From an uncultured bacterium (GTDB lineage Bacteria > Patescibacteriota > Kazan-3B-28), in NCBI GenBank assembly GCA_963695435.1, contig OY968788.1, positions 413,456 through 477,455 of the forward strand: a DNA stretch of 64,000 nucleotides, in the 5' to 3' direction. The notes below the pieces were generated by a model that did not search any database, was not told where the DNA came from, and saw only the letters and a program-made list of their open reading frames with translations. Position 1 is the first letter of the stretch; each line of letters begins with the position of its first letter. A program made the position numbers and the translations under genes. This document shows positions 1 to 25,281 of this stretch, one piece after another.

Positions 1-273
1 AAGATTCAATCAAAGTAAAACCACCATCGGAAGTGTTGATAGCATCAAGCCCTTCCACGCCAACGATAATAGATTCTTCGCTGTTGTTGTTGATAACTGC
101 CGTGTCGCTTTTAATTTCCCCTGGTTTTAGTGTGTAAACAAACCAGCTCCGCGATGGCTCGGCGGGAGTGGGTTGGGGCATAATACCGATTCCGCCAGCA
201 GCAGAAACTGATTGAACCAGCCAGAAAAATACTGCCAGTCCCCCAACAATAATTAGTCGCCAATTATATTTCA

Positions 274-1776
274 TCATTTGCGACGATTAGGTTTAGATTT
301 GGGTATAAGAAGTTCCTGACCAGCCCGCAAACGATACGGTGGGTGCAGACGATTCAGGCGAATAATAGTTTCGATTGTGGTACCAGCAAATTTAGCCACA
401 TCTTCAATCGTATCGCCACGGTCTACAATCACTACTTCGGCGGCAATATTTTTTTCAGTGGAAATAATTCCCTGCATCCGCTTGGAGATTTCGTGAGTGT
501 TGCGCCGACTAAAGAAATGAGTAAATGCTTTTGTGATAATATTCCGATGACCCAAAACTTGCTGGAGACGTTCTTGCCACTCGCTCTGTTGCAGTTTGCC
601 AATTGGGATTAGTAGCTTTTCACCAGCTTTGACTTCGTATGGCCAGCGCAAAAGATTAAACTTGGCCAATATCCGAGGATCGGCGCTCATCTTAGAAGCT
701 ATTTTGGTAAGTGTGTCGCCAGCTATTACGGTGTAGATGGTAGTTTTGGTTTTTAACCGATTCACAATTAGGTAATACAACCAAACTGAACGCAACAGGT
801 AGGCAACAAACAATGCGATTAGTAGGTAAAGTATCTCGGTCAACGGGAAGACCCAAAAAACATATCGTTTGGTAATCACAATTTCCGGTAGCTGAGTCTT
901 GGTACGATCTTTATTAACCTGCTCCCGAGCGGGAAGATGGAAAGTAAAATCGGCCACAAATCGACCGAAGTAAGGCGCTCTCCGTACCCATGCGCCTTCT
1001 AGTGTAGTAGTTTGACCTCGAGCGATGGTCCCATAAGTAGCACCTGTTTGTTCACCAACTTTGCCAAAAAATCCTCTAACTTTAATATCAATTTTGGGGG
1101 TAAGTCGAACATTGCCTTGATTATCAAATTTAATTCGGAAAAGTAATTTACGATTATCACCACGCCCCGAAACAACATGATGACCGATTTTTTTAATAAA
1201 CAAGTCTCTTTTAATGTCGCCGGGGACAATGTTATATACTCCAACTCCAATACGGGTCAGGATTTGAGCACCATTTCCTTTGGTTTGGGCTTCCGGTACG
1301 ATTTCTTGAGCATAGATTTCTCCTTGATAGTCGCCAACATCAGCATTATCAGGAACCTTGATAGTAAACTTTGCTACCGCCTCACTATGCGCTTTTAGCG
1401 TAAACCGATTTTTTTCAAAAGTAATCCAAGTACCAGTGTTGGGTTGTTTGTCGGGAGTGGTTTCAGCGGGCGACAAAGTATAGTCTGGATTAAGAGTTGA
1501 GCCACCACCGAAGAGGATGAATGTCTTGGTTTCGTTGGATGTATTTAAAACGGTGATAGCGTCATCCAGCTGTTCGCCTTCCGCCAAAACATAACCATAA
1601 TAGTTTCGATTTATCCCGCTACCTATGGTGGGGTCGAGGGCGATACCGTCATAGCCAATCTGACCAGCAACCACAACGGGTGCAAGTTGCTGAATAATCG
1701 GTAAAATGGCTATCAAAAACAAGCTTAACCTAACAACTGTCCAAATTCTTTTTTTCCCCAACACTTTCATAAACAA
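274..1776 (-). CDS. Surface protein: signal peptide, DUF916-like beta-sandwich N-domain, one TM helix, two C-terminal LysM domains. Paralog of 19473..20912.
   Basis: N-terminal hydrophobic signal. Motif KFTIKVPDNADVGDYQGEIYAQ matches KFTVNVPLDADVGDHIGGLAVY in the paralog. TM segment FWVFPLTEILYLLIALFVAYLL. Two LysM-like blocks (YTVIAGDTLTKIA...LLIPIG and VVIVDRGDTIEDVA...ELLIPK). Confidence 0.7.
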   Translation of the reverse strand: MFMKVLGKKRIWTVVRLSLFLIAILPIIQQLAPVVVAGQIGYDGIALDPTIGSGINRNYYGYVLAEGEQLDDAITVLNTSNETKTFILFGGGSTLNPDYTLSPAETTPDKQPNTGTWITFEKNRFTLKAHSEAVAKFTIKVPDNADVGDYQGEIYAQEIVPEAQTKGNGAQILTRIGVGVYNIVPGDIKRDLFIKKIGHHVVSGRGDNRKLLFRIKFDNQGNVRLTPKIDIKVRGFFGKVGEQTGATYGTIARGQTTTLEGAWVRRAPYFGRFVADFTFHLPAREQVNKDRTKTQLPEIVITKRYVFWVFPLTEILYLLIALFVAYLLRSVWLYYLIVNRLKTKTTIYTVIAGDTLTKIASKMSADPRILAKFNLLRWPYEVKAGEKLLIPIGKLQQSEWQERLQQVLGHRNIITKAFTHFFSRRNTHEISKRMQGIISTEKNIAAEVVIVDRGDTIEDVAKFAGTTIETIIRLNRLHPPYRLRAGQELLIPKSKPNRRK

Positions 1777-1831
1777 ACACTGCTCTAATACGGAGTATGC
1801 TTTTTTATTCTATTACAAACCCGACTGTAAG

Positions 1832-3337
1832 TTAAGAAATGGATGCGTTGTTCTTTGGCTGATATTGCCATAACAGAGAAAATTCGTCCGAGTAAATGAG
1901 TTTCCACCCCATGGGGTTATTTCCCAGCACATTATTAACCAGATGTTCTCTGGGCAACAGAATAATTTCAGGATGCCACTTGTCAACCATTTCGGTAATG
2001 TCTTTCGGGTTAAGAGATAGCAACTTAGTGTAGTCATCAAAGATTCGCAAACCGTTTTGACGCCAAATTGCCATTCTCCCGTCAATAAACAATTTGTATT
2101 CAGGCAATTGCCAGATAATATAACCGCCCCAACCATACTCGGTAACAAGTCTCACGTCGGGCGAAAAGTGTTGTTTAATGTAATCCGTTGCTTGAGTGGG
2201 GTAGCCAGTAGCTTGACCGTAACTAATAGACGAAGCAAGAGCCGTTCTCAAAACATCAACTCTGTTTAGCCCCCAACCAAATACTAATATCACCAGAATC
2301 AACAACAGCCATGTTCGACGAGCTAAATCCCGTAATCCGTGTTCGACTACCGGCCCTAATTGTTCAATCAGCAATGGCAAACTAACCAGAGCGAAAAGGG
2401 GCAAATGTCGCCAAGAGGTAACGCCGAAAAAGAAAAATGTGACAGCTAACACTAATTTAGTGAGGTCAAAATTGAACCTATTAATGAATATTAGAACGAT
2501 TATCAGAACACCCAAAATGACAGCATTGTAACTGCCGGATGATTGCAGAGTGACTGGCAACCATTCGGCAATTCGGTTCAAAATGTCGGACTGACTAAGG
2601 GTGTCGTAAATTTCTCGATAAATATGCCAACCGTAAGGATTAATCAGAGTAGCTAATAATCCCCCGCCTATGCCGATAAAGCCTAAGCGAAATAGTTCTT
2701 GCCAACTTAGGAGATGTAAATTTTTAGCAGGACGCGGACCAGCCAAAATTCGGCGGAGTGCCTCCCCTACTATAAACATACCAATTACGACAAAACCGCT
2801 TAAAAAGCCACCGTGAAAATTGACCCAGACAAAAAACAAAATAGGCAACCAGTACAACAATTTAATCCGCTGGTTTTCTCTCCAAGCAAATAGAATCAAC
2901 ATAGTAATAGCTGTGCCCACCAGCGTCAGCATTTGCGGACGCACACCGATGATGTTCCAACAAACCAACAGAGCGATGACAGACCCCACAATGGCGGATA
3001 ACGGAGTTTTTCTAAATTGTTGCATGCGAGTCGGTAGCCAGAAGGCTAAAACAATTATTAGTGAAAATAAAATTACCAATGGCCAGAGACCACCAATATG
3101 GTAGAGGACATACATAATTCGGTCTGTCATCCATTCATGGGCAATCCAAGGGAAATTTGGCATCGACCAAGAAAAAATATCGGTATGAGGCGGGAAAAGA
3201 TGAGCCCAAAGATAACGTCCGCTGCCCAAATGCCAGCCTAAATCTGGATCGCCCGGCAGACTAAGTGCGAAAAACAGCAAAAATGACAAAACGATACCTA
3301 TAAACCACCAATTTCGATTAAAAAAGATTTTATTCAT
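1832..3337 (-). CDS. GT-C fold polytopic membrane glycosyltransferase (ArnT/PMT/YfhO-like). Paralog of 17827..19395.
   Basis: More than 10 predicted TM helices. Conserved DPDLGWHL loop near the N-terminus and a C-terminal EYGWGGYIIWQLPEYKLFIDGRM block, both shared with 17827..19395. 4-bp overlap (ATGA) with the upstream gene. Confidence 0.6.
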   Translation of the reverse strand: MNKIFFNRNWWFIGIVLSFLLFFALSLPGDPDLGWHLGSGRYLWAHLFPPHTDIFSWSMPNFPWIAHEWMTDRIMYVLYHIGGLWPLVILFSLIIVLAFWLPTRMQQFRKTPLSAIVGSVIALLVCWNIIGVRPQMLTLVGTAITMLILFAWRENQRIKLLYWLPILFFVWVNFHGGFLSGFVVIGMFIVGEALRRILAGPRPAKNLHLLSWQELFRLGFIGIGGGLLATLINPYGWHIYREIYDTLSQSDILNRIAEWLPVTLQSSGSYNAVILGVLIIVLIFINRFNFDLTKLVLAVTFFFFGVTSWRHLPLFALVSLPLLIEQLGPVVEHGLRDLARRTWLLLILVILVFGWGLNRVDVLRTALASSISYGQATGYPTQATDYIKQHFSPDVRLVTEYGWGGYIIWQLPEYKLFIDGRMAIWRQNGLRIFDDYTKLLSLNPKDITEMVDKWHPEIILLPREHLVNNVLGNNPMGWKLIYSDEFSLLWQYQPKNNASIS

Positions 3338-4938: not shown

Positions 4939-4959
4939 TAAGTTTATTGTCGCACAAAA

Positions 4960-4989
4960 TTGACCCCACTTTTATAAGCGGGGTCAATA
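4960..4989 (-). terminator. Intergenic hairpin (ttgaccccgc/gcggggtcaa, followed by a T-rich run on the minus strand) between the WxL-like gene and the downstream GT-C genes. Likely a partial terminator or attenuator.
   Basis: 8-9 bp GC-rich stem followed by ttttgtg on the minus strand. Same placement as terminator 17759..17788 in the paralogous locus. Confidence 0.45.
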
Positions 4990-5027
4990 TAATTCGAATA
5001 ACCTTCTAATTTATAAAAGGTAAAAGA

Positions 5028-5639
5028 TTAAGTACCATCGCTAGCCAGCAATGTTAGCACGAATTTACCCGTATATTCACCAGCAGGAAATACGGCTGGG
5101 ACAGGCACGGTGAATTTTATACCGTTGATTCTGGCTGCCATTGGTGCGTTGTAGGTTGAGTTGAAAATGTTGCGCAGAGTGCCGATTTCTACGTCGTTGC
5201 CTTCGCCAATTCCAATTTTTGTACCATCCCATGTGGCGACATTGCTGATGGTGGCGTTGCCGGGATGGACTTTAATGGTGCTGGCCAAAATTGAGTTAGT
5301 GCCACTATTCATATTGCTGGCGTTAACACGAACTGACCAGTAGGAGTTAGCTGCACCGCGTAGGTCACTAACAACATGGTTGCTTAAAACATTATTACCA
5401 GTGGCACCACTACCAACTCCAACAGCAGCAAAAGCCAAGGCAATATCACCATTGCTTAACGAAAGAGCACCGGCGGTAACTCCAATGTTGGTATCGATAT
5501 TATTAGTTAGTCCTGCAAAAACACCTGCTTGCGAATTGAACCACATCAAGCCGACGACCAAAAGAATTAGGCCGCCATAAATTTGTTGTGTTACCTTTGC
5601 TTGGACCTTGTGTAATACAAGATCATTACTGTTTTCCAT
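5028..5639 (-). CDS. Small secreted surface protein with N-terminal signal anchor and a WxL-like C-terminal domain. Paralog of 17108..17734.
   Basis: TM anchor GGLILLVVGLMWF. Gly/Ala/Asn/Thr-rich body. W-x-V/L motifs (SYWSVRV, ATWDG). C-terminal YTGKFVLTLL resembles the second WxL motif. Probable start at MENSND (5637-5639) preceded by AGGGGG; the ORF track extends to 5681. Confidence 0.55.
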   Translation of the reverse strand: MENSNDLVLHKVQAKVTQQIYGGLILLVVGLMWFNSQAGVFAGLTNNIDTNIGVTAGALSLSNGDIALAFAAVGVGSGATGNNVLSNHVVSDLRGAANSYWSVRVNASNMNSGTNSILASTIKVHPGNATISNVATWDGTKIGIGEGNDVEIGTLRNIFNSTYNAPMAARINGIKFTVPVPAVFPAGEYTGKFVLTLLASDGT

Positions 5640-6046
5640 TTTCCCCCTAATGGTACTCTTGTTGTTATTCGACATTTTCATTTTATTTTATTTTTGTTTT
5701 GTTGCGCAATAGTTTTTTTTCAAATTCTTTTTTCTGTGTTCTTCAACTGATTACTTTATTTTTTTATTCAATCAGTTTCTTTAGAATTTTCTTTTACTTT
5801 AGTTTGCACAAATTATTTTTCTTTTCTATTCAACAACTCTTGATTTGTAATAACTTTCTCAAAAAATGTTGTAAATCATTTTAGCAAGTGAAGGTCAGAG
5901 AAGTAAATTTATTTTCAAATTCGATTGGCGTTTTTTGGAAATTTCTAAATACTTTTTATCCTAATTACTTTAGTATATCACAATTATTATAAACTGTCAA
6001 TACCAACGGTTTCTTGAGATTGATGAGGGTATGCTAAAATCTAGGT

Positions 6047-7915
6047 ATGCCACCTTCGTCCAACAGATTAGCAAAGCAGATAACTAATTGGGCTACTGGC
6101 GTTCTATGGGGAGCTTGGGGGCTGGCTTTGGCGTTGGCGGCACGGGGCTTATTTAGCTCCAGCATTCACCGTACGCATGATACAACCCCATATCTGTGGG
6201 CAAAAGCAATGTTTGAGATGTGGCAAAGGGGTTGGTGGTGGCCTCAATGGTTGCCACAAGTTTGGGTTGGATTTGGGGCTCCGGTATTTCACTACTATGC
6301 TCCGTTGTATTATTGGTGGGTTAGTCTGTTCCAGCTGATGGGGCTAAATGCAATATTGGCCACCAAAGTAGTATTGATTATTAGCTTATTCCTCGGGGCA
6401 TGGGGAATGTACCGATTAGCCAGACATTGGTTTGGACTGGAAGCCTCACTGCTGGCAAGCGGGTTATTTGTTTGGGCACCATATTATCTGGCGTTGCTGT
6501 ACACTCGGGGAGCTTTCCCAGAATTTTTTGCTCTAAATCTAGTACCTTGGATTTTGTGGGCACTGGTGACCTACTATCGAAAACCAGCTCGCTGGATATG
6601 GATAGTATTGGTACTGGGTTTGGTCGGAGTGATTCTATCGCATACGCTGACTTCTTTTGTGACGGTAGCGGTGGTAATCGCCATGCTGTTTTATCTTTAT
6701 TATGGCGAGATAAAAAATCGCCGAGCGATTGGCCGAATTGGCCTAGCTGGTTTAGTAGCCTTAGGCCTGACGGCGTTTTATTGGCTGCCAGCACTAGTAG
6801 ATGCCAAACTAATCAATGCAATTTATCTAACCGTCAGTAAATTTGACTATCACCTTTCTTTCCCTAGTTTAGTCAATCTGATAAATCTGTATCGAGATCG
6901 TGAACAAGCTTGGCTGTCGGTTGGGGTGGTTCATTCGGCAACATGGTTAGCCGGATTATTGGTGTACTTTATTGTTCGGCGTCAGCCCTCGGCTAAATTA
7001 TTAGCTGTCCTACTAACCATCTCGGGGATTTTAATTTTTATGGCACTGCCGATTTCTCAATGGATTTGGCAAACTCTACCCGAACTGGCATATTTCCAAT
7101 TCCCTACTAGGTTCCTTGGTCCAGCGGCTATTTTTATTGGTCTAATCGGTGGTTGGTTAGTGCAACAAGCACCAACTGAAGCCAAGGCGCGAGCCAAATT
7201 GGCTAGTGTGATTTTGCTATTGGTTGTAATGGCCAACCTACCGGTATCATCCAATCTGGTTAGTTGGCTAGAGCACAACACAACCGCCGAAAGCTTAACG
7301 ATGAATGAGTATGTGGCTCTTAGATTTGCAACTTCATACGCAGGAGCTGTGAACGGCGTGGGATTGTTTGTTGCTGATTCGGGTATTATGCCGTCAGAAT
7401 ATTTACCTAGTGAATATGTAACAAATCCTAAAACTTATGTCGCCAATGACAGCGAGCCACTAATCACTTACGGTATTGATAACGCCGAACAGCGCTTGGT
7501 TGATGATAAAACATTGAGTCCGTTGCCACTGTTTGAAACTGTAAGTGGTCAGGCGACCATAAATATTCTGGTGGATAAGCCATGGCAAACTCAAGCCGAG
7601 ATTGATGCGACCACAAATACAACATTACAGATTAACCGCATGCGTTTCCCATTATGGAAAATTACTCTGGACGGTAAACCGGTTACGACTTATCTGAAAA
7701 CTGGGGTGTTGGGACAGTTTATGAGCATACCGGTCGGAAAGCACACTTTAGAAGTTAGCTGGAAAAACTCATTAGTTATGATTTGGTCGAGAGTTTTCTC
7801 TGGATTATCGGCGCTGGCACTGTTGGTCGTACTGGTTTTCTCTCGGCTAAGAACGAAAAAATCTGCTAAACTGGTTGCGTATGGCAAAAAAGATAAGAAA
7901 CGCAAAAGCAGATAA
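6047..7915 (+). CDS. GT-C fold membrane glycosyltransferase (YfhO/oligosaccharyltransferase-like) with large C-terminal extracytoplasmic domain.
   Basis: About 12 TM helices. Trp/Tyr-rich first loop (WQRGWWWPQWLPQVW...HYYAPLYYWW). About 230-aa soluble domain, then a final TM and a KKDKKRKSR tail. Confidence 0.5.
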   Translation: MPPSSNRLAKQITNWATGVLWGAWGLALALAARGLFSSSIHRTHDTTPYLWAKAMFEMWQRGWWWPQWLPQVWVGFGAPVFHYYAPLYYWWVSLFQLMGLNAILATKVVLIISLFLGAWGMYRLARHWFGLEASLLASGLFVWAPYYLALLYTRGAFPEFFALNLVPWILWALVTYYRKPARWIWIVLVLGLVGVILSHTLTSFVTVAVVIAMLFYLYYGEIKNRRAIGRIGLAGLVALGLTAFYWLPALVDAKLINAIYLTVSKFDYHLSFPSLVNLINLYRDREQAWLSVGVVHSATWLAGLLVYFIVRRQPSAKLLAVLLTISGILIFMALPISQWIWQTLPELAYFQFPTRFLGPAAIFIGLIGGWLVQQAPTEAKARAKLASVILLLVVMANLPVSSNLVSWLEHNTTAESLTMNEYVALRFATSYAGAVNGVGLFVADSGIMPSEYLPSEYVTNPKTYVANDSEPLITYGIDNAEQRLVDDKTLSPLPLFETVSGQATINILVDKPWQTQAEIDATTNTTLQINRMRFPLWKITLDGKPVTTYLKTGVLGQFMSIPVGKHTLEVSWKNSLVMIWSRVFSGLSALALLVVLVFSRLRTKKSAKLVAYGKKDKKRKSR

Positions 7916-11295: not shown

Positions 11296-12114
11296 CTACG
11301 GACGGCGAGGCAAAGTAAAATCTTGAATGTAACCAACCTGCAAATATTTTCCGCGCATCATATTCATTTTTATGCGGAATAAGTCTTTTAGTGTGCGAAT
11401 AGCTTCTTTTCCTGCGCGAACACGGCTATCTGGATCGTTGTACCATTCAATCCCCACCTCCTTGAACGGATATCCAAGTTGCCGAGCAATCACAAAAGCT
11501 TCGATATCGAAACCGAATCTTTCCAATCGAACATTGGCAAAAATATTCTTGCCAGCATTGCGTTCAAAAAGTTTGAAACCACATTGGGTGTCCCAAATTC
11601 CCGGCACTGCCACAATCCGAATTAGTAAGTTGGAAGCACGGGAAAGTAATTTGCGATGTTGAGCTTGGTGAATATGGATATGAGCACCCTTAATGTGACG
11701 AGAACCAAAAACGATTGGGAAAGTATCGACATACGGCCACATCTTCTCGATTTCCTCAATAGGAGTGGCGTTGTCGGCATCCGTAAAGAGCAGATATCTG
11801 CCTTTGGCGGACAACATTGCTCTCTTTACCGCTGCTCCCTTGCCCTGATTTTGGATGGCGGTAATCAGTTTCAGCTCTGGCCAGCCCTCCTGAATAATCT
11901 TTACGACTGGAACAGTGGTGTCTTTGCTCCCGTCATCAGAAACAATCACCTCATAGGTGTAAGATTGGGCATCCAGATATTTTCTCATCTGGGCGAGAGT
12001 TTTTCCGATACGGCGCTCTTCGTTATAGGCTGGAACAATAATTGAAAGCTGAACCTCCCCTACCGCAACGGTTGGTTGAGTTACTGGCTGGCTGGGGGCG
12101 ATTCCTACTTCCAT
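11296..12114 (-). CDS. GT2 family polyprenyl-phosphate glycosyltransferase (DPM1/GtrB/CsbB-like).
   Basis: LSIIVPAYNEERRI...VIVSDDGSKDTT (DxD-type GT-A signature). Start chosen at MEVGIAP; the longer ORF N-terminus (MDSRLRGNDRSGG) is a translation of a family-2 hairpin repeat. Confidence 0.8.
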   Translation of the reverse strand: MEVGIAPSQPVTQPTVAVGEVQLSIIVPAYNEERRIGKTLAQMRKYLDAQSYTYEVIVSDDGSKDTTVPVVKIIQEGWPELKLITAIQNQGKGAAVKRAMLSAKGRYLLFTDADNATPIEEIEKMWPYVDTFPIVFGSRHIKGAHIHIHQAQHRKLLSRASNLLIRIVAVPGIWDTQCGFKLFERNAGKNIFANVRLERFGFDIEAFVIARQLGYPFKEVGIEWYNDPDSRVRAGKEAIRTLKDLFRIKMNMMRGKYLQVGYIQDFTLPRRP

Positions 12115-12143
12115 ACCTCTTATTGTACCGTATCCTCCTGACC

Positions 12144-12170
12144 TGTCATTCCCGCGCAGGCGGGAATCCA
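12144..12170. repeat. Small hairpin repeat, family 2 (ATTCCCGC-loop-GCGGGAATGACA).
   Basis: 8-bp perfect stem. Copies at 30548..30574 and 38500..38526 with compensatory stem changes (cccgc/gcggg versus ccagc/gctgg). Confidence 0.7.
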
Positions 12171-12209
12171 TTTTCTCCGTCATGCTGAATTTAGTTCAGT
12201 ATCTTTTTT

Positions 12210-12284
12210 GTCATTCTGACGCTAGGAAGAATCTATAATATTCTCTTAGATCCTTCCCCCGACAAGTCGGGGTCGAGGATGACA
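12210..12284. repeat. Family-1 palindromic element, inverted orientation, with extra internal hairpin (ccccgacaagtcgggg).
   Basis: Reverse complement aligns with the copy at 16915..16995 along its whole length. Confidence 0.8.
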
Positions 12285-12292
12285 ATAAATTG

Positions 12293-12742
12293 TTACTTCT
12301 TGAATATCAGGAATTTGGGAGCGAGGAAGTTCCAAAGGAAAATCAAAACGACTGAAGTAAATTTCACAAGATTCAAATCGAAATGAAATATTAAACTCAT
12401 CAAATAAACAAATCCATTTGAGATGCCCAAGCCAACCAGACTAACAAAAACAAAAAACGGAAGTTGTGTTTGCCATTTCCCTGTTGTGTCGCCAAAGGTC
12501 CAATATTTGTTCATAAAGAAACTGTTGATAACAGCTACAACAAACGCAACTGTGTTGGCTGGCATAATCGGCCACGAATAGTAAACCAAAACATTCAATA
12601 GTCCAATATCGATAGCAGTATTCAAACCGCCCACAAGAGCGAACTTTGAGAATTGTCTAACCAGCTTCTCTACTTTCTCCGAATGAACACCAGTATATTT
12701 GCTAATCAGTTTGCTTGTCCAAACTATGAGATTGTTTAGCAT
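12293..12742 (-). CDS. GtrA-family small membrane protein (putative polyprenyl-phosphate-sugar flippase).
   Basis: About 150 aa with 4 TM helices. GtrA-like core FALVGGLNTAIDIGLLNVLV. Start set at MLNNLIV to avoid overlap with the upstream gene. Confidence 0.65.
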   Translation of the reverse strand: MLNNLIVWTSKLISKYTGVHSEKVEKLVRQFSKFALVGGLNTAIDIGLLNVLVYYSWPIMPANTVAFVVAVINSFFMNKYWTFGDTTGKWQTQLPFFVFVSLVGLGISNGFVYLMSLIFHFDLNLVKFTSVVLIFLWNFLAPKFLIFKK

Positions 12743-12746
12743 AATT

Positions 12747-13472
12747 TTATTTTTGAGCGAGAACAACCAAACTACTCCCCCATGGTAAGCGCCAGTTATG
12801 CGACAACCACCAAGCTTCAATTTTGCTGAGCCAGACTAAAATACCAGAGGTGTGAGTCGCCTCGCTGGCTGTTTCGTAGGTGGTTTTTTCCTTTCGACCC
12901 ATAATGAAACGCACTGCAACAAAAACTGGAAATACAAAAAAGAAAAATGGTGAAAGTAAAACTACTTTGAAACCAACTTGTTCTAATTTCCTTTTTAAGT
13001 CAGCCGGATTGTAGCGCCGTTGGTGATGTAAGGCTTTGTCGTGTCCTGTCCACATCCATTGATACGCAGGTACGGTAATAAAAACATATCCGTTTGGTTT
13101 GAGAGTGGTGTACCAATTTCGTAAAGCTGAAATATCATCTTGAATATGTTCTAAGACATCAAATGCGGTGAGCAAATCAAATTGAGAATCAAAGGAAAGA
13201 TTTGTTCCGTCAGTTTGAATCAATTCGTCATAGACATGTTTGTTCCGACAATAGTCGAGTGCTTCGGCGCTAGTATCCAACCCTGTCACCCTCCCCCAGT
13301 TTTTGAGCCAGTTGTAATTAATACCCGTACCACAACCAACATCTAAAATATCCAAATTTTGACCCTGAGGAATATGTTTCCCCAGTACCTTTTGCAAAAC
13401 TTCCCGACGGCCAATATGCCACCAGTAGTTCTGCTCTTCCTGCTCCATCCGACCGTATTCAGATAGCTCCAT
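12747..13472 (-). CDS. Class I SAM-dependent methyltransferase.
   Basis: Motif I LDILDVGCGTGINYNWL. About 240 aa. Co-directional with GtrA and the GT2 gene. Confidence 0.75.
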   Translation of the reverse strand: MELSEYGRMEQEEQNYWWHIGRREVLQKVLGKHIPQGQNLDILDVGCGTGINYNWLKNWGRVTGLDTSAEALDYCRNKHVYDELIQTDGTNLSFDSQFDLLTAFDVLEHIQDDISALRNWYTTLKPNGYVFITVPAYQWMWTGHDKALHHQRRYNPADLKRKLEQVGFKVVLLSPFFFFVFPVFVAVRFIMGRKEKTTYETASEATHTSGILVWLSKIEAWWLSHNWRLPWGSSLVVLAQK

Positions 13473-17107: not shown

Positions 17108-17734
17108 ATGAAAAACAAGATTAGTAACCTTTTACAGGTTCAGGCAGAAATCAGCCGACAAGCCTTAGTGCTTGGCACGGTTTTGTTTTTCGCTGGTGTG
17201 ATGTCAATCGCAACAATCAAAGTTAGTAGTGCGGCTACCGGTGATACCAATATGCTGCAAAATGTTGAGGGTGGGGCTATGGCATTTGATAATGTTCCTA
17301 ATAATGTCAACTTTGGAGCTACTTCTCTGGGGGAGGTAAATGCAAATGTTAGTACTGGTAGCAGTGGTATTGTTCTTAACGATCTTCGTGGAACTAAGGC
17401 GGGTTGGTCAATTACTGGTTATGTAAATAGTAATTTTTATAGTGCTGCTACACCGGCCACCCAAATGGCTGTTGCGGATAGGTTGACTTGGCTCGCAAAT
17501 GCCGTAACAATCGCAAATATTACTGGTGATACTGGAGGCGTTGTCCAACAAGCTAATAATACTTTTACCGCAGCGGGTGATGCTGCTAATTTGACTCTTG
17601 CCCTTGATGTTGGTTCAGGTAATAATGGCGCGGGAGCTTACAATATTACTAATTTGGAATTTCAATATGATGTTCCTGCGTTAGCAACAGTTGCTGCTGA
17701 TTATAAAACAATGTTTACATTAACCATCGTCTAA
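17108..17734 (+). CDS. Small secreted surface protein with WxL-like C-terminal domain. Paralog of 5028..5639.
   Basis: Signal anchor ALVLGTVLFFAGVMSIA. Gly/Ala/Asn/Thr-rich body. GWSITGY and RLTWLANA (W-x-L) motifs. C-terminal YKTMFTLTIV. Monocistronic between a consensus promoter and a terminator. Confidence 0.55.
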   Translation: MKNKISNLLQVQAEISRQALVLGTVLFFAGVMSIATIKVSSAATGDTNMLQNVEGGAMAFDNVPNNVNFGATSLGEVNANVSTGSSGIVLNDLRGTKAGWSITGYVNSNFYSAATPATQMAVADRLTWLANAVTIANITGDTGGVVQQANNTFTAAGDAANLTLALDVGSGNNGAGAYNITNLEFQYDVPALATVAADYKTMFTLTIV

Positions 17735-17758
17735 TTACTTTACTTAGGAATAGTGGAT

Positions 17759-17788
17759 AAATCAGGGCTTATAAGCCCTGATTTTTTA
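17759..17788 (+). terminator. Rho-independent terminator after the WxL-like gene.
   Basis: aatcagggctt-ata-aagccctgatt followed by TTTTTTAT. Confidence 0.8.
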
Positions 17789-17826
17789 TTTGTACCGATA
17801 AATTAGTCTTATGGTAATCTAATACT

Positions 17827-19395
17827 ATGAGACGCCGTAAACAGCAACCGCGATTCTCTTTGCCACTAACGATAGCCAGAACAACTGTTGCTAAGAAGTG
17901 GCGAGAGTTTTGGAATCAATTCGATACGCTAACTTGGTTGCTGTTTGGTCTGCTTCTGACTTTTTGCTGGAGGATACCTACAACCGACCCTGATTTCGGC
18001 TGGCATTTGCGTTCAGGGTTAGACCTGCTAAAGAATTTTTTTGTCCCCAAATTTGACCCATATTCATACACTCTCCCCGATTGGCCGTGGGTGAACCACG
18101 AATGGCTGGCTGACGGGTTGGCAGCTCTAATTTACAAAGCAGGTGGAATCTGGGGGCTAAGCTTGGTGTTCGCAATCCTTCTGATAGGAATCTTTTTATT
18201 GGCTGCTTCTGCGACCAAAAAAGTAAAAAATAGATATAAAATATTGGCTGGTCTGGTAGCTATTTTGGCAGCATCACCGATTTTGGGGGTTCGAATGCAG
18301 ATGATTACCCTCTTGGGGATGGTCTGGCTCTTGTGGATTTTATATCGCTATCGTATTGGTGAAATTAAGCACCTGTGGTGGCTTCCTGTTATCTTTCTTT
18401 TTTGGGCAAACCTTCACGGTGGATTCTTAATGGGGTTTGTTGTTTTGGGAATATTCTGGTTAGTTGAGGGTATAAAGTTTATCGTCAAACAGTATCGGCT
18501 GAAGTGGTATAAGTGGTTAAAAATTGATGAGGCGAGTTTGGGTGGACCAAAACTTAAACATCTCCTTCTGATAAGCGGATTATCTTTTCTTGCGACCTTC
18601 ATCAATCCTTACGGCTGGGGGCTGTACTACGATTTTTACAAATTATTTACCAATCCTTTTGCAATAAAGAATATTTCGGAATGGCAACCAGTATCATTGG
18701 CTAGCACCTTGTCGGCGAACTTTACGCTGTATATGATTTTGTTCGCAGTGCTTTTACTTTTGACTTACCGAAAAGTTGAGCCGACTCGCTGGGCGATTAC
18801 GGGTTCATTTTTATGGCTTTCGTTTTTGTATTGGCGTAATCTCCCCTTCTTTATGGTGATGAGTGTTGGTTTTTTGGCGGAAACAATTCAAGAACATACG
18901 CATCTGATTTTTGACTATATAGCCCGACAACGCTGGATACTGGTCAGTTGGGTGATAATTGTTGGAATTATTGTGTCCCAACAGATTATTAGTATTAGTG
19001 ACCGGATACAGTACCCTACTATCGGCTTACAGGCGGCTGGTTATCCTGTGGAGGCGGTGAAATGGATTCAGCAAAACCGCGGAGAATTGGGTGACAAAAT
19101 GTTCAACGAATATGACTGGGGTGGTTATCTCATCTGGAAATTACCCGAATACAAAGTATTTCTAGACGGTCGGATGCCTTACTGGCAGATTGGCGACAGA
19201 TTCCCCTTTGTTGATCATCAGTATGCAATGTCGGCTCAAGCGGGTTCGATTGAAATGTTGGAAAATAAGTATGGGGTGGACTGGTTTCTAATTAGACAGG
19301 GACGACCGTTGGCCGTTGCGTTGTATGGGCAAACTGAAAAGTGGAAAGAAGTATATCGTGACGGAGCAGCAGTGATTTATCGGAAAATTATTTAG
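17827..19395 (+). CDS. GT-C fold membrane glycosyltransferase. Paralog of 1832..3337.
   Basis: Shares the DPDFGWHL loop and the C-terminal EYDWGGYLIWKLPEYKVFLDGRMPYW block with 1832..3337. More than 10 TM helices. Confidence 0.6.
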   Translation: MRRRKQQPRFSLPLTIARTTVAKKWREFWNQFDTLTWLLFGLLLTFCWRIPTTDPDFGWHLRSGLDLLKNFFVPKFDPYSYTLPDWPWVNHEWLADGLAALIYKAGGIWGLSLVFAILLIGIFLLAASATKKVKNRYKILAGLVAILAASPILGVRMQMITLLGMVWLLWILYRYRIGEIKHLWWLPVIFLFWANLHGGFLMGFVVLGIFWLVEGIKFIVKQYRLKWYKWLKIDEASLGGPKLKHLLLISGLSFLATFINPYGWGLYYDFYKLFTNPFAIKNISEWQPVSLASTLSANFTLYMILFAVLLLLTYRKVEPTRWAITGSFLWLSFLYWRNLPFFMVMSVGFLAETIQEHTHLIFDYIARQRWILVSWVIIVGIIVSQQIISISDRIQYPTIGLQAAGYPVEAVKWIQQNRGELGDKMFNEYDWGGYLIWKLPEYKVFLDGRMPYWQIGDRFPFVDHQYAMSAQAGSIEMLENKYGVDWFLIRQGRPLAVALYGQTEKWKEVYRDGAAVIYRKII

Positions 19396-19472
19396 CTGAC
19401 AGATATGTAAAGAATAAACTCACCTGTTGGCGAGATACTTTATCCTAGAGAAAAGTCACGAATTAGCATAAA

Positions 19473-20912
19473 ATGGAATCTGTGAACAATCGAAAATTGT
19501 TAGCACGAACAACTGGAATTTTACTCTTGACTGTAGCGTTGTCAGCTGTGGCAGCTTTGCCTATGTCGGCTTTAGCATTGTCTACGGGTAGTATGGGTAT
19601 ATTACCCGCTCATCCAGATCCGAGTATCCCTCTCTCTAGTAGCTGGTTTTTATATGAAGTGGATCCTGGTGCCACCATTGAAGACGCTGTTCAGATATCA
19701 AACCCCGGTGATAAATCAACTAAATTAAAATTGGAAGGTCTAGATGCGGGGATGAATGATGATGGCGGGTTTGGGTTGGCCAGTTCTTCTGAAGAAAATG
19801 AGGATATTGGCAAGTGGATTACTCTGGAAAGTAGCGAAATCAGTCTAGCACCTAAGGAAAAAAAGATTGTGAAATTTACCGTCAATGTTCCCCTTGATGC
19901 TGATGTGGGAGACCATATTGGAGGGTTGGCTGTATATAAGATGAGTGACGTGGCCGACGAGACTGTTAAGGCGGGCGGAGCTAGTGTGGGTATTTCTACT
20001 CGAGTTGGAGCTCGAATTTATTTGACGGTCAAAGGTGATATTGTCCGAAAGTTAATTTTGAAAAGTAAAAAGTTTTTTAGTCGAGGCAAGACAATGCTCT
20101 TTCGATTCAAGTGGGAGAATAAAGGAAATGTTCGCGCCAAACCAATTGCTAATGGAAAAATTTACGGGATTTTTGGAGTGTATCATGTTGTTGATAATGT
20201 TAGTTTGGGCGAAATTTTCCCCAAAAAGAATGTTGTGAGAGAAGTTGCATTACAAGGGAAGGACCGACCAATATTCGGACCGTATTTAGCGGTTCTAAAA
20301 ATCCAAGATGAATTTACAGGTCTTAACCCCACAAACCCAATCCCGACAACCGAACCGTTTACGGTCTGGATGTTCACCTTCTTCATCCCCTACACTCAAG
20401 TTTTGATTCTATTGATTCTGCTGTTCTTGGTTTGGTTCTTTATGCAACTTAGAAAATGGCGACAGATGATTAATCTTTCAAAAACACCAGTGGCCACTTA
20501 CAAAATAAACAAGGGCGATCATTTGACAAGTATCGCATCTCGGTACGGTGTGAATTGGAAATTGTTGGCAAAACTGAACGAAATCAAACCGCCGTACAGT
20601 CTCGACGGAGTTACCCAGATTTATGTGCCTGACGTCAGAGGCACTCGGCGAAATATCCGTGTCCCCCACTTTTTGACCTATATCACCAGACCATTACATC
20701 ATTTCTTGGTTGATTTTGTTGCTCGCTTCTTAAAGAAAAAGAAGCTATATTACACCATCGTGGTTGATGGGAATGATACTAAAGAAGATATTGAGAAGTT
20801 CACTAAAATGAGTTGGGCGGAAATTGCCAGATATAACGGAATTGGAGCAACTGCTCGTCCTAAAGTTGGTCAGGAACTTCGAATCCCTCACCGCCGACTA
20901 AAATCAAAATAA
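19473..20912 (+). CDS. Surface protein: signal peptide, DUF916-like domain, TM helix, two LysM domains. Paralog of 274..1776.
   Basis: Same architecture and conserved motifs as 274..1776. TM segment WMFTFFIPYTQVLILLILLFLVWFF. LysM blocks YKINKGDHLTSIASRYG... and YTIVVDGNDTKEDIEKF...GQELRIP. Confidence 0.7.
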   Translation: MESVNNRKLLARTTGILLLTVALSAVAALPMSALALSTGSMGILPAHPDPSIPLSSSWFLYEVDPGATIEDAVQISNPGDKSTKLKLEGLDAGMNDDGGFGLASSSEENEDIGKWITLESSEISLAPKEKKIVKFTVNVPLDADVGDHIGGLAVYKMSDVADETVKAGGASVGISTRVGARIYLTVKGDIVRKLILKSKKFFSRGKTMLFRFKWENKGNVRAKPIANGKIYGIFGVYHVVDNVSLGEIFPKKNVVREVALQGKDRPIFGPYLAVLKIQDEFTGLNPTNPIPTTEPFTVWMFTFFIPYTQVLILLILLFLVWFFMQLRKWRQMINLSKTPVATYKINKGDHLTSIASRYGVNWKLLAKLNEIKPPYSLDGVTQIYVPDVRGTRRNIRVPHFLTYITRPLHHFLVDFVARFLKKKKLYYTIVVDGNDTKEDIEKFTKMSWAEIARYNGIGATARPKVGQELRIPHRRLKSK

Positions 20913-20914
20913 GT

Positions 20915-23900
20915 ATGAGGTGTTTGATGGTTACTCGTCACCGAATTACTACACAGCGAGCCATTCCCCCATCATCAATCTGGTGGCTAACTGTACTCGT
21001 ATTAGTGAGTTTGTTTTGTGATTTACCAATGGCTGGTGCAGTAACCAACGACGCCATGATGGTCTATGACACTCAAACGATTACCTCAACTCCAAAGTAT
21101 CAACGATGGAACGGATCATGGGGTGGTGAAGCATCAGCTAACACGACCACTGGAGAGATTAGATACATGGAGCTGAAGTTTTCACCCGTAGCCGACCAAG
21201 CTATTTTAGTAACTCAAGGTAGCAGTGGAGTGTTAGAAGCTCAAGTCTGGACAGGAGGAGGAACTAATAGTTGGGGGGCAATCACGATTATTGGGACAGT
21301 CGGAGCTGGGACATTAGAAGGAGCTGGGATTAATGATGGTGAACAGTTTCGATGTTGGGATATTGAGTATGAACAAGTGTCTGGTGATGCGGTAATTGTC
21401 TACCAAGATGGAACGGCCGATCCAGATTACAAAGTGTATTCTAGTGGGGCTTGGTCTGTTAGCGGATCTGACATAAATATTCTCACTACTGGGGCACCGG
21501 CTTGGATCGAGTTAGCTTCATCACCAGGAGAAGATTATTTAGCGATGATTTCGATAGATGTGACGATTGATGTCTATGGTATGCGGTGGAACGGAAGCGC
21601 TTGGGATGATATGAATAGCGGTGGGGCGGAAGCAATTTGGGACACTGGTGGGTCAATCTATTACCGTAAGAGTATTGATGTGGCATTTGAAACTAACTCG
21701 GCTGATATTTTATTTATGTGGTATGACGCCACCCAAGATGTTCAAAACTACCGCAGATACACTCAAGGCACCACCACACTAGAAACACTGCAAACTCTGT
21801 CTATGACCAACCAAGCTGGGTTGGGTCAGTGGGTGCAATTGGCAGCCGACCCAACGGCTGGTTCGGACAAGATTATGTATGTGGAACAAGATGCGCAGTT
21901 AGACATTTGGTCAGCGTATTGGGATGGTTCAGCTTGGACGGCTGAGACTGTCGCCCATGATGCGACTGTGGAAATTGTGACTAACATGAACTTTGATGTA
22001 GCTTGGGAAACCTATACTGGTCATACTGGTCATTGCTGGATTGTGTATGGTGATGGGGCTGGTACGTCATCTCGACATTGGAACGGCAGTAGCTGGGACT
22101 CTGTCTCCACCACTCCAACTAGTGATGATGATACTGGGCATGTTCGAGTAGCTGTTCAACCGAATGATGGAACATTATTTGCCATGTCGTACGAAACAAC
22201 TGGTTCAGCTAGTGACAACATTGAAGTTTCATCCAATGCCAGTGGTTCGTCAACTTGGGGAGCCCAAAGTGAAATCTGGGCTGGACCGACTGTAACCGAC
22301 ACTGCGACGGTGGCATTAGGTGGCACTTTCCGGATGGCGATTGCGGCGGAGATATACAGCTCTTCAACCGACGCCATGATGGTCTATGACACTCAAACGA
22401 TTACCTCAACTCCAAAGTATCAACGATGGAACGGATCATGGGGTGGTGAAGCATCAGCTAACACGACCACTGGAGAGATTAGATACATGGAGCTGAAGTT
22501 TTCACCCGTAGCCGACCAAGCTATTTTAGTAACTCAAGGTAGCAGTGGAGTGTTAGAAGCTCAAGTCTGGACAGGAGGAGGAACTAATAGTTGGGGGGCA
22601 ATCACGATTATTGGGACAGTCGGAGCTGGGACATTAGAAGGAGCTGGGATTAATAATGGTGAACAGTTCCGATGTTGGGATATTGAGTATGAACAAGTGT
22701 CTGGTGATGCGGTAATTGTCTACCAAGATGGAACGGCCGATCCAGATTACAAAGTGTATTCTAGTGGGGCTTGGTCTGTTAGCGGATCTGACATAAATAT
22801 TCTCACTACTGGGGCACCGGCTTGGATCGAGTTAGCTTCATCACCAGGTGAGGATTATTTAGCGATGATTGTCCTAGACCAAAACACAGATGTCTACGGC
22901 ATGCGGTGGAATGGGAGTGGCTGGGATGACATGAACAGTGGTGGAGATGAAGCTGTCTGGGACACAGCTGCAGCTTTGTATTACCGCAAATGTATTGATG
23001 TAGCATTTGAAACTAACTCCAACGACATTTTATTTATGTGGTATGACGGTGTCCAAGATGTTCAAAACTACCGCAGATACACCCATGGCACCACCACACT
23101 AGAAACACTGCAAACTCTGTCTATGACCAACCAAGCTGGGTTGGGTCAGTGGGTGCAATTGGCAGCCGACCCAACGGCTGGTTCGGACAAGATTATGTAT
23201 GTGGAACAAGATGCGCAGTTAGACATTTGGTCAGCGTATTGGGATGGTTCAGCTTGGACGGCTGAGACTGTCGCCCATGATGCGACTGTGGAAATTGTGA
23301 CTAACATGAACTTTGATGTAGCTTGGGAAACCTATACTGGTCATACTGGTCATTGCTGGATTGTGTATGGTGATGGGGCTGGTACGTCATCTCGACATTG
23401 GAACGGCAGTAGCTGGGACTCTGTCTCCACCACTCCAACTAGTGATGATGATACTGGGCATGTTCGAGTAGCTGTTCAACCGAATGATGGAACATTATTT
23501 GCCATGTCGTACGAAACAACTGGTTCAGCTAGTGACAACATTGAAGTTTCATCCAATGCCAGTGGTTCGTCAACTTGGGGAGCCCAAAGTGAAATCTGGG
23601 CTGGACCGACTGTAACCGACACTGCGACGGTGACATTAGGTGGCACTTTCCGGATGGCGATTGCGGCGGAGATAGCTGAATCGGCAACACTGGGTATCAC
23701 CGCCCCAACTGATGTCACATTAACCACTGGCAATCCGGGAACAACCGTGGATACGACTTTTGGGACTGGTGAAAAAGTGACTCTGACGGATGGCGGCGCG
23801 GGCTGGACTTTGAGTGCACGGATGCTGGCTACTTTGACTTCAGGCAGTTATACGATTCCCAACACTAATGTGTACTTGCGCAAAGACGGAAATGTCGGAT

Positions 23901-24115
23901 CAAGTGATACTTACACGATTTGGTCAGGAACTTACACTAATGTATCCGAAACAAACGCCACCGAATCGCTGGACGCTTCTCGAACAGTTGGCATACGAAG
24001 CAGTGGAACAGGGGGTGATTCTACCGAAGTGCGACCTAGCATTCAATTGGTGATTCCGCCCAGCCAGACACCAGCCTCAGATTATGCTGGCTCAATCCGA
24101 TTTACTGTCATATAG
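20915..24115 (+). CDS. Giant secreted protein: signal peptide, two tandem 440-aa beta-propeller-like units (W-N-G-S-x-W blades), C-terminal WxL-like domain.
   Basis: Internal 1320-bp tandem duplication (21051..22370 and 22371..23690). Each unit has 7-8 blade-like subrepeats (YxxWNGSxW with DGxxxxxVY). C-terminus has GAGWTLSA (WxL) and ends YAGSIRFTVI, like the two small WxL-like proteins. Confidence 0.6.
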   Translation: MRCLMVTRHRITTQRAIPPSSIWWLTVLVLVSLFCDLPMAGAVTNDAMMVYDTQTITSTPKYQRWNGSWGGEASANTTTGEIRYMELKFSPVADQAILVTQGSSGVLEAQVWTGGGTNSWGAITIIGTVGAGTLEGAGINDGEQFRCWDIEYEQVSGDAVIVYQDGTADPDYKVYSSGAWSVSGSDINILTTGAPAWIELASSPGEDYLAMISIDVTIDVYGMRWNGSAWDDMNSGGAEAIWDTGGSIYYRKSIDVAFETNSADILFMWYDATQDVQNYRRYTQGTTTLETLQTLSMTNQAGLGQWVQLAADPTAGSDKIMYVEQDAQLDIWSAYWDGSAWTAETVAHDATVEIVTNMNFDVAWETYTGHTGHCWIVYGDGAGTSSRHWNGSSWDSVSTTPTSDDDTGHVRVAVQPNDGTLFAMSYETTGSASDNIEVSSNASGSSTWGAQSEIWAGPTVTDTATVALGGTFRMAIAAEIYSSSTDAMMVYDTQTITSTPKYQRWNGSWGGEASANTTTGEIRYMELKFSPVADQAILVTQGSSGVLEAQVWTGGGTNSWGAITIIGTVGAGTLEGAGINNGEQFRCWDIEYEQVSGDAVIVYQDGTADPDYKVYSSGAWSVSGSDINILTTGAPAWIELASSPGEDYLAMIVLDQNTDVYGMRWNGSGWDDMNSGGDEAVWDTAAALYYRKCIDVAFETNSNDILFMWYDGVQDVQNYRRYTHGTTTLETLQTLSMTNQAGLGQWVQLAADPTAGSDKIMYVEQDAQLDIWSAYWDGSAWTAETVAHDATVEIVTNMNFDVAWETYTGHTGHCWIVYGDGAGTSSRHWNGSSWDSVSTTPTSDDDTGHVRVAVQPNDGTLFAMSYETTGSASDNIEVSSNASGSSTWGAQSEIWAGPTVTDTATVTLGGTFRMAIAAEIAESATLGITAPTDVTLTTGNPGTTVDTTFGTGEKVTLTDGGAGWTLSARMLATLTSGSYTIPNTNVYLRKDGNVGSSDTYTIWSGTYTNVSETNATESLDASRTVGIRSSGTGGDSTEVRPSIQLVIPPSQTPASDYAGSIRFTVI
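21051..23690 (+). repeat. Two-copy 1320-bp in-frame tandem duplication inside the giant surface gene.
   Basis: Flanks of the units are nearly identical at the nucleotide level. A central stretch of roughly 220 bp (21551..21770 versus 22871..23090) is diverged at both synonymous and nonsynonymous sites. Confidence 0.9.
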
Positions 24116-24153
24116 ACTGGCTTTAGATTCCTTCTGGAAGGTATAATTGGAAT

Positions 24154-25281
24154 ATGCGATTTACCTCTGACCTGATAATTAGCGCTTTGGCCGTATTATT
24201 ACTACTGGCTGGCGCTTTGTGGTTGCCGTTAGTCGGGGCTAGTACTGGAAATATGGGGATGTCTCTGGCTGTTGTTGAAGAGGACGACGGTGGCGGCGGA
24301 AGTGGTGGCGGAGGTGGTGGAAATCCAAATCAACCGTCCACACCAGTTATCCCTGTTGTGCCTGTTGTACCCGTACCGCCGAAAGAGTTTAGATTGGTGG
24401 ATTATGTGCCCAAAGTTATACCTGCATATCGCGATACGCCAATCGTTCTGTACGGCTACAATTTCCCTTCAGATTTCAAAATTGTGGTGAAAGCCAGAGA
24501 TGCAATGTTGGTGGCAGATAGCGCTATGGTGAATAAGAAAACTGTCATAATAGAGGGGGCTGTATTAGAGGCCGTACAATATGTTGTTCCCGCAAAAACA
24601 CTAACGCCGGGTGAGGCGGTGTTGCTGATTCAGGAAGCCGACAAGGCGTTAACTTCTCCGTTACCGATATTAGTGTACGATTCTGTCAAAAGAATAAATT
24701 TGCGGGCGCAGATCGCCGAGCGAACAATTAATATAATTGTTGCTAGTGGTCAGTCAGCCAATGTCACCGTCAAATTTAAAAACATTGGGCTGACCGAATG
24801 GGACTATTTGCTCCAGCCGTTACATATCGGTACCAATAGCCCTCATGATCGGCAATCCCGATTTATTCACAAAGATTGGCCCTATAACAATCGGGTGGTA
24901 AAAGTAAGTTTGCCGCCGGATGTAAAGACGGGCGAAACATTTGATGCCACCTTTCCCATCCAAGCCCCCGTGGTAAAACGAACTACTCGTTACACCGAGA
25001 ACTTTGCACTGGTAGCAGAGGGCATCGCTTGGATTCCCGGTTCTAACTTTACCGTCCGGATTACCGTTTCCGCACCGGTGGCGGAGAAGATAGTAAAAGC
25101 GACTACCCAAAAAACTACGCCGGTACCCGCTGTCAAAAAGCCCGCTGCCCCCTACAAAATTCCTAATACCATACCAGCAACTGCTGTTAAGAGTGGTAGT
25201 TGGTTGAGCGGGATAAAATCATTCCTTGCGCAAGCACTTGGTCTTGTGGGAACATTAGCCAGTAATTTACTCCCTAAATAA
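24154..25281 (+). CDS. Secreted, C-terminally anchored hypothetical protein with Gly-rich and Pro-rich linker.
   Basis: Signal peptide. Linker GGGGSGGGGGGNPNQPSTPVIPVVPVVPVPP. C-terminal hydrophobic segment. Directly follows the giant surface gene. Confidence 0.45.
   Translation: MRFTSDLIISALAVLLLLAGALWLPLVGASTGNMGMSLAVVEEDDGGGGSGGGGGGNPNQPSTPVIPVVPVVPVPPKEFRLVDYVPKVIPAYRDTPIVLYGYNFPSDFKIVVKARDAMLVADSAMVNKKTVIIEGAVLEAVQYVVPAKTLTPGEAVLLIQEADKALTSPLPILVYDSVKRINLRAQIAERTINIIVASGQSANVTVKFKNIGLTEWDYLLQPLHIGTNSPHDRQSRFIHKDWPYNNRVVKVSLPPDVKTGETFDATFPIQAPVVKRTTRYTENFALVAEGIAWIPGSNFTVRITVSAPVAEKIVKATTQKTTPVPAVKKPAAPYKIPNTIPATAVKSGSWLSGIKSFLAQALGLVGTLASNLLPK

Follow-up and report, generated by a model that had tools for sequence, protein, structure and literature searches.

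The 64,000-nucleotide (nt) stretch of DNA analysed here, called the window throughout, comes from contig OY968788.1 of an uncultured Kazan-3B-28 bacterium. It encodes three proteins ending in a module that resembles the WxL domain of Firmicute cell-surface proteins. Two of them are small (A and B) and the third is a giant protein (G) of 1066 amino acids (aa). The first and second tryptophan motifs of the module are referred to as W1 and W2, and the features that carry the module are the following.

5028..5681, minus strand: small WxL-like protein A, 217 aa counted from the first ATG; paralogue of B
17108..17734, plus strand: small WxL-like protein B, 208 aa; signal/transmembrane segment and one WxL-like domain
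20915..24115, plus strand: large WxL-like protein G; signal/transmembrane segment, two tandem 440-aa cargo repeats and a WxL-like tail
21027..23704, plus strand: tandem duplication that makes up the cargo of G; period 1320 nt, copies 93% identical, 440 aa each
23675..24115, plus strand: C-terminal WxL-like domain of G (the tail); residues 921-1066, about 146 aa, limits set by a hidden Markov model (HMM)

A hydrophobic N-terminal segment is present in A, B and G. Databases start A at Met15 (position 5639), giving 203 aa (P0041), and their version of G (P0008) begins at Met5 (20927). A sequence-only reading of the window had described the three open reading frames (ORFs), their W-x-L motifs and their endings, and all were found as described: YWSVRV and the terminal EYTGKFVLTLLASDGT in A, GWSITG and the terminal DYKTMFTLTIV in B, and GWTLSA and the terminal DYAGSIRFTVI in G. 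The interval given there for the module in G (23690-24115) lies within 15 nt of the domain defined by the HMM.

Pairwise comparison of the three proteins yields short or marginal matches. A and B are 26% identical over their full length in BLASTP (E 0.005) and the tail of G matches A and B over the last ~25 aa only (E 0.014 and 0.096, respectively). The tail was also undetected by a six-sequence HMM of the small family, so that deeper profiles were needed. The small family is a rare one: about nine clusters were found among 5.8 billion sequences. Searched exhaustively with HMMER, the tail retrieved 34 representative proteins of 83-1092 aa. Profile-profile alignment of the tail family (30-32 sequences) with the small family by hhalign gave probabilities of 83.5-94% and E values of 8e-6 to 2.6e-8 over 140-152 columns, and in it the Trp motifs of the two families coincide, as do their terminal strands. 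Controls of the same composition, consisting of reversed and 20 column-shuffled profiles, reached probabilities of at most 1% with E values of at least 0.05. The profile matches, taken together with the negative reversed and shuffled controls, thus indicate that the shared C-terminal module claimed for the three proteins is real and not an effect of composition.

The relation to known WxL domains was examined with a canonical profile of 15 sequences annotated as 'WxL domain-containing' from plasmids of Lactobacillales and Bacillales (Enterococcus, Melissococcus, Vagococcus, Lactococcus, Listeria and Bacillus). These sequences were reached by tblastn with the DUF916 protein encoded between B and G, by way of plasmid clusters of L. 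plantarum and E. mundtii. The small family aligns with this profile at probabilities of 96.5-97.5% (E 1e-9 to 2e-11, 153-174 columns) and the tail family at 92-94% (E 5.8e-7 to 3.4e-8). In both alignments W1 falls on W1, whereas W2 of the canonical domains is met by Phe in the tail and by Leu in the small family. The reversed and shuffled controls were negative in this comparison as well. The alignment of A and B with small WxL proteins of the canonical kind runs from the signal peptide through to the end. An HMM of the canonical sequences, applied to the window's full set of 313 ORFs, ranked B, A and the tail of G as its top three. Profile-profile alignment, the check that the sequence-only reading had proposed, is therefore significant both among the three proteins and against the WxL profile. 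Judged from these alignments, the three domains are homologous to one another and to canonical WxL domains.

The Pfam model of the family (PF13731, cut-off 25 bits) reaches some relatives of the window proteins. P0005, which is 40% identical to B, passes it with 25.7 bits, and at E<=1 it weakly matches eight of the 30 tail homologues (best E 3.9e-5). The scores of three tails are 22.7 (P0025), 21.5 (P0026) and 17.8 bits (P0028), the matches of P0025 and P0026 being colinear with the model. No Pfam family other than WxL matches more than two of the 30 tails. A tblastn search of plasmids with P0005 returned chance Rhizobium matches only.

The conserved turn preceding the first Trp of WxL domains consists of an Asp at W-8, an Arg at W-6 and GTxAG immediately before the Trp (PMC9772566). 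This turn is matched exactly in B (NDLRGTKAGWSI; D-x-R-G-T-x-A-G-W), which thus shares the D-x-R-G-T-x-A-G-W-x-L motif of the proteins from Lactobacillales, Listeria and Bacillus, and one residue is inserted in the turn of A (SDLRGAANSYWSV). The tail of G (LTDGGAGWTL) retains W-x-L with a shorter turn that has no Arg. Conservation of the motif extends to the homologues, where the W1 Trp is kept in 26 of 30 tails and in all six small proteins. For the second motif, the replacement of Trp by Phe or Val that had been read from the sequence is correct as regards Phe, which occupies the W2 position in 29 of 30 tails (F-T-V in G, whose last strand reads IRF-T-V-I), but not as regards Val: the residue in the small proteins is Leu in six of six (L-T-L in A; L-T-I in B, which ends in FTLTIV). 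The C-terminal strand and its preceding Tyr are conserved, and the strand follows the canonical pattern Y-x-x-x-[LIF]-x-[aromatic/Leu]-T-[LIV]. The distance from W1 to W2 (94, 105 and 99 residues) also falls within the 84-127 residues of the fetched canonical proteins. Whereas canonical WxL proteins continue into an x-x-x-P tail, those of the window lack it and end 1-6 residues past the motif.

Homology between A and B extends along their entire length, and a signal segment followed by the domain is all that either of them contains. The earlier description of three otherwise different proteins, the small ones bearing a cargo of 200 aa, did not hold in this respect, as A and B are paralogues that consist of the domain alone and belong, free of cargo, to the 'small WxL' class. 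The related idea of one module serving different cargos is supported across genomes and across the tail family, but not between the 200-aa and the 1066-aa proteins. The tail lies at the extreme C-terminus of nearly all full-length homologues (P0035 and P0037 are exceptions), while the N-terminal parts differ and include a DUF5122 propeller, WD40, DUF7483 and others. In the three related genomes L001, L016 and L017 the tail is 66-87% identical to that of G, while the cargo has no similarity to that of G.

The cargo of G is, by its sequence, a duplicated Trp/Gly-rich module of 440 aa, with three W[ND]GSxW motifs in each copy. The copies differ almost exclusively within a single patch, at gene nt ~615-850 (in each copy, aa ~205-285), and are near-identical elsewhere. 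Short-read contigs that contain gene B terminate within gene G. The orthologous large protein in Kazan bacterium RIFCSPHIGHO2_01_FULL_49_10 (L001, 8892-10447) is interrupted by stretches of N and appears in the annotation solely as a 148-aa fragment (P0006); its cargo, unrelated to that of G, is a Gly-rich region in which H-x-H motifs recur.

The genes surrounding A, B and G fall into two loci, whose remaining members are listed below.

19473..20912, plus strand: WxLIP-like protein; Pfam PF06030 at 44.3 bits (cut-off 27.3), LysM at 58 bits
17827..19395, plus strand: polytopic membrane protein, 522 aa, between B and the WxLIP gene; no Pfam match
24154..25281, plus strand: secreted 375-aa protein; Gly run, Pro-rich linker and Ig-like region; syntenic in three related genomes
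274..1776, minus strand: WxLIP-like paralogue of locus 1; WxLIP_PGBD at 24 bits, under the 27.3 cut-off; two LysM domains
1832..3337, minus strand: polytopic membrane protein paralogue of locus 1; 32% identity to 17827..19395, E 9e-81
1..277, minus strand: start of a further WxLIP_PGBD-like gene that leaves the window; its translation resembles the N-terminus of 19473..20912

Locus 2 (17108-25281, plus strand) runs from B through the polytopic membrane protein, the WxLIP-like protein and G to the 375-aa secreted protein. Locus 1 (1-5681, minus strand) contains the small, membrane and WxLIP genes again and extends past the edge of the window. The gene between B and G thus encodes a WxLIP_PGBD (DUF916) protein, the partner found in known WxL clusters, where a minimal cluster is defined as a WxLIP together with a pair of WxL proteins within four genes (Hassan et al. 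2023). If the WxL-like domains are counted as WxL, locus 2 conforms to this definition with four consecutive genes. The assignment of the module to the WxL type is therefore upheld by the alignment to canonical WxL domains, by the DUF916 neighbour and by the behaviour of the tail as a portable C-terminal module. Taken as a whole, the WxL interpretation is essentially right once corrected in the points given above, and is partly supported. The most probable reading is that the window carries a pair of paralogous WxL (Csc-type) clusters for the cell surface, both strongly diverged, from a bacterium that resembles Kazan and the Candidate Phyla Radiation (CPR) by the labels of its closest homologues.

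The WxLIP-like protein of locus 2 is composed of a signal peptide, WxLIP_PGBD, a second beta region, a hydrophobic stretch (residues 296-329) and two LysM domains. It is 28% identical to the product of 274..1776 over the full length (E 5e-42), and in both proteins the LysM pair comes after one hydrophobic stretch of 34 aa and a patch rich in Lys and Arg. In tblastn, residues 31-287 are colinear with L. plantarum proteins labelled 'DUF916 and DUF3324', although weakly (E 0.01-0.1). The polytopic membrane protein has about 8-10 hydrophobic segments and the sequence 'DPDFGWHL' near its N-terminus, and is unmatched in Pfam at E<=10. Its gene is fixed in both loci of the window and in L001, L016 and L017. 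The five-gene order is kept in these three genomes, which are two metagenome-assembled genomes of Kazan and one labelled Saccharibacteria. The search for related loci, made with a three-sequence alignment, retrieved two genomes only, and the taxonomic range is accordingly under-sampled.

The 375-aa protein lies directly downstream of G, and its identity in three related genomes is 69-76%. Its sequence combines a signal segment with a run of GGGGSGGGGGG and a linker rich in Pro and Val, and has a weak match to an Ig-like family (N_BRCA1_IG). The protein may correspond to the small anchored one known from canonical clusters. At the other end of the window, the DUF916-like gene start at 1-277 on the minus strand (MMKYNWRL...GIGIMPQPTPAEPSRSWFVYTLKPGE...) overlaps the stop of 274..1776. 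Since this gene is truncated by the window edge, locus 1 continues beyond it and the large WxL-like gene of locus 1 may lie outside the window. Glycosylation-type genes occur around and between the loci (3334-4938, minus strand; 6047-7915, plus strand; 11296-13472, minus strand). They encode a PMT_2/TMEM260-like membrane glycosyltransferase, located within locus 1, a PTPS_related membrane protein, GT2, GtrA and a methyltransferase, and could be a sign that the surface proteins, which are rich in Thr, Ser and Asn, are glycosylated.

Compared with the WxL/Csc clusters of Firmicutes (PF13731, PF06030; PMC9772566, PMC10599100, PMC1534035), the window shares a domain ~150-170 aa long that forms the extreme C-terminus, the grouping of a small domain-only protein and a large cargo-bearing protein around a DUF916 gene, and signal segments on every member. 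Further differences are found in the partners of the WxL-like proteins. A canonical WxLIP consists of PGBD (DUF916), HBD (DUF3324) and a C-terminal transmembrane helix (Hassan et al. 2023), whereas the WxLIP-like proteins of the window have no detectable DUF3324 and carry two LysM domains after the membrane segment. The polytopic membrane protein and the 375-aa secreted protein are fixed members here, while canonical clusters have no polytopic gene. The host, furthermore, is a Kazan-like CPR bacterium and not a Firmicute.

A second set of relatives was found on actinobacterial plasmids, in the form of unannotated proteins of Clavibacter phaseoli pCCh (L004, 6119-6745) and Arthrobacter caoxuetaonis (L020, 4242-4751). 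Like the small proteins of the window, they have 169-208 aa and a signal peptide, retain the first Trp motif (TDTRD..GAGWYVL; TDERAGELGWVASV) and lack the second Trp, ending in ITLSLFE and TIVHSVI. Each is encoded immediately upstream of a DUF916 gene that represents the closest plasmid relative of the window WxLIP (28% identity, E 7e-19); the DUF916 protein of the window is nearer to those of Actinobacteria than to those of Lactobacillales. The two proteins match the HMM of the CPR small family weakly in a search of eight sequences (E 2e-7 and 1.6e-5), and, unlike in the window, neither a large tail-bearing protein nor a LysM fusion was seen at their loci.

The AlphaFold2 (AF2) model of the tail of G is all-beta with 12 strands and is of high confidence (predicted local distance difference test score, pLDDT, 94.7; predicted template modelling score, pTM, 0.87), and both motifs are located within beta strands (50-62 and 144-151); in a WxL domain they are expected on neighbouring antiparallel strands that make up a buried hydrophobic platform. 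The best weak Foldseek matches of this model in the PDB are pilin-like or GH123 beta domains, and PDB sequence searches with both family profiles returned noise only (Fab chains, claudin).

Several of our results weigh against a WxL assignment. The Pfam WxL model leaves A, B, G and the isolated tail of G unmatched even at E<=10, and the NCBIfam models have no relevant match for A, B, G or the tail. The second Trp, which is a defining residue of WxL domains, is absent, and the tail of G has TDGGAGW in place of the Asp-x-Arg turn. From the six available sequences the AF2 model of B was unusable (pLDDT 43), and a Foldseek search of the PDB with the tail model found no match at E<1e-3, the best having E values of at least 5e-3 and a template modelling (TM) score of at most 0.49. 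No Pfam match to DUF3324/HBD was found at E<=10 in the WxLIP-like proteins and, if their hydrophobic stretch is a single transmembrane helix, the LysM domains would face the cytoplasm. Finally, no LPxTG-like motif was found near the C-terminus of the ORFs in the loci, although an LPxTG protein is frequent and not obligatory in WxL clusters (Hassan et al. 2023).

By analogy with the known clusters, G would be exported by Sec and then be retained non-covalently at the cell surface by its C-terminal domain. The tail could hold by binding peptidoglycan, by docking, jointly with the small WxL protein, on the WxLIP protein anchored in the membrane, or by both, and the variable cargo would be directed outward. 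We infer this non-covalent anchoring from the known WxL clusters (PMC9772566, PMC10599100), the homology of the family and the conserved gene order; non-covalent wall binding itself is known only for enterococcal WxL domains (cited in PMC9772566). In an episymbiotic CPR cell the cargo is likely to serve in adhesion to the host or to a substrate. A sorting signal of the type IX secretion system or of the sortase type was considered for the C-termini and dropped, as LPxTG is absent and the module is a folded domain of 146 aa and not a short signal.

Three other explanations of the C-termini were weighed. They could be unrelated and alike by chance, as beta proteins rich in Thr, Gly, Ser and Asn whose last strand is hydrophobic, and both the BLASTP matches of the tail to A and B, confined to ~25 residues (E 0.014-0.096), and its absence from the hits of the six-sequence HMM are in keeping with this. 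We give it hardly any credence because the shuffling controls, with probabilities of at most 1% and E values of at least 0.05, refute it: the profile-profile matches extend over 137-174 columns with probabilities of 83-97.5%, the canonical WxL HMM selects these same three among the 313 ORFs, and the gene context supports WxL independently. It is also improbable, though not to the same degree, that the module is a donor-strand-complemented subunit of a fibre into which the small proteins polymerise, with the WxLIP protein at the base, the large protein at the tip and no peptidoglycan anchor. The best PDB folds of the tail are indeed those of the chaperone-usher pilins FimA, CfaB and Csu, of bundling pili from archaea (7ueg) and of CanA cannulae (7uii, 9h8b), with which it shares an Ig-like beta sandwich of ~150 aa. 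A small domain-only protein is always paired with a large one in the clusters, and published AF2 modelling inserts a beta-hairpin of DUF916 beside the N-terminal strand of WxL, which is proposed to rearrange. The resemblance, however, is one of fold class only, since the matches (8-20% identity, E at least 5e-3, TM 0.35-0.49, root-mean-square deviation 6-14 A) are typical of any Ig-like sandwich. No chaperone or usher genes are found nearby, the tail monomer is modelled completely and confidently without a donated strand, and polymerisation of WxL proteins has no support in the WxL literature examined.

The third explanation accepts homology to WxL and concerns the function of the domain, which would dock to the WxLIP-like protein without binding peptidoglycan itself, while the LysM domains of the latter attach to the wall. 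The two LysM domains are unique to the WxLIP-like proteins of CPR, the second Trp motif is lost in their partners, and a direct contact between WxL and DUF916 has been proposed (PMC10599100). On the other hand, the Trp and Leu side chains of WxL are described in the published account as buried and structural, not as ligand contacts, so that their replacement by Phe or Leu says little about binding. The position of LysM behind the hydrophobic stretch and the Lys/Arg-rich patch, moreover, is possibly cytoplasmic. We regard such a docking role as a possibility, although a rather unlikely one, next to retention at the surface by the WxL-like domain.

More than 91% of known WxL sequences come from Firmicutes (PMC9772566). 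A 2023 survey listed orphan DUF916 only, without a WxL partner, in a Kazan genome and in TM7x (PMC10599100, Table S5), and in our search of the literature no paper connecting WxL with Patescibacteria/CPR was found. The family and the cluster type are therefore known, and the divergent form in a Kazan/CPR-type bacterium is previously unreported. This finding places the 'orphan' DUF916 genes of the survey between diverged WxL-like genes and extends the WxL system to CPR and probably to Actinobacteria too. The second Trp is shown to be dispensable to the fold family, and its absence from the Clavibacter and Arthrobacter plasmid proteins as well hints at a wider unrecognised branch.

The window proteins join a conserved anchor to exchangeable cargo in organisms about whose attachment to surfaces little is understood, and they are candidates for host-adhesion studies and for an improved family model. 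In a broader and more doubtful extension, which we put forward tentatively, the Firmicute WxL cluster would be a single visible branch of a surface-display system that is much wider, is shared by wall-bearing monoderm-type bacteria including CPR and Actinobacteria, has no second Trp and escapes Pfam. The platform of tail, WxLIP and LysM in CPR episymbionts, its cargo exchanged rapidly and duplicated internally, would then be a host-attachment apparatus, perhaps assembled by strand insertion between the WxLIP and WxL-like domains.

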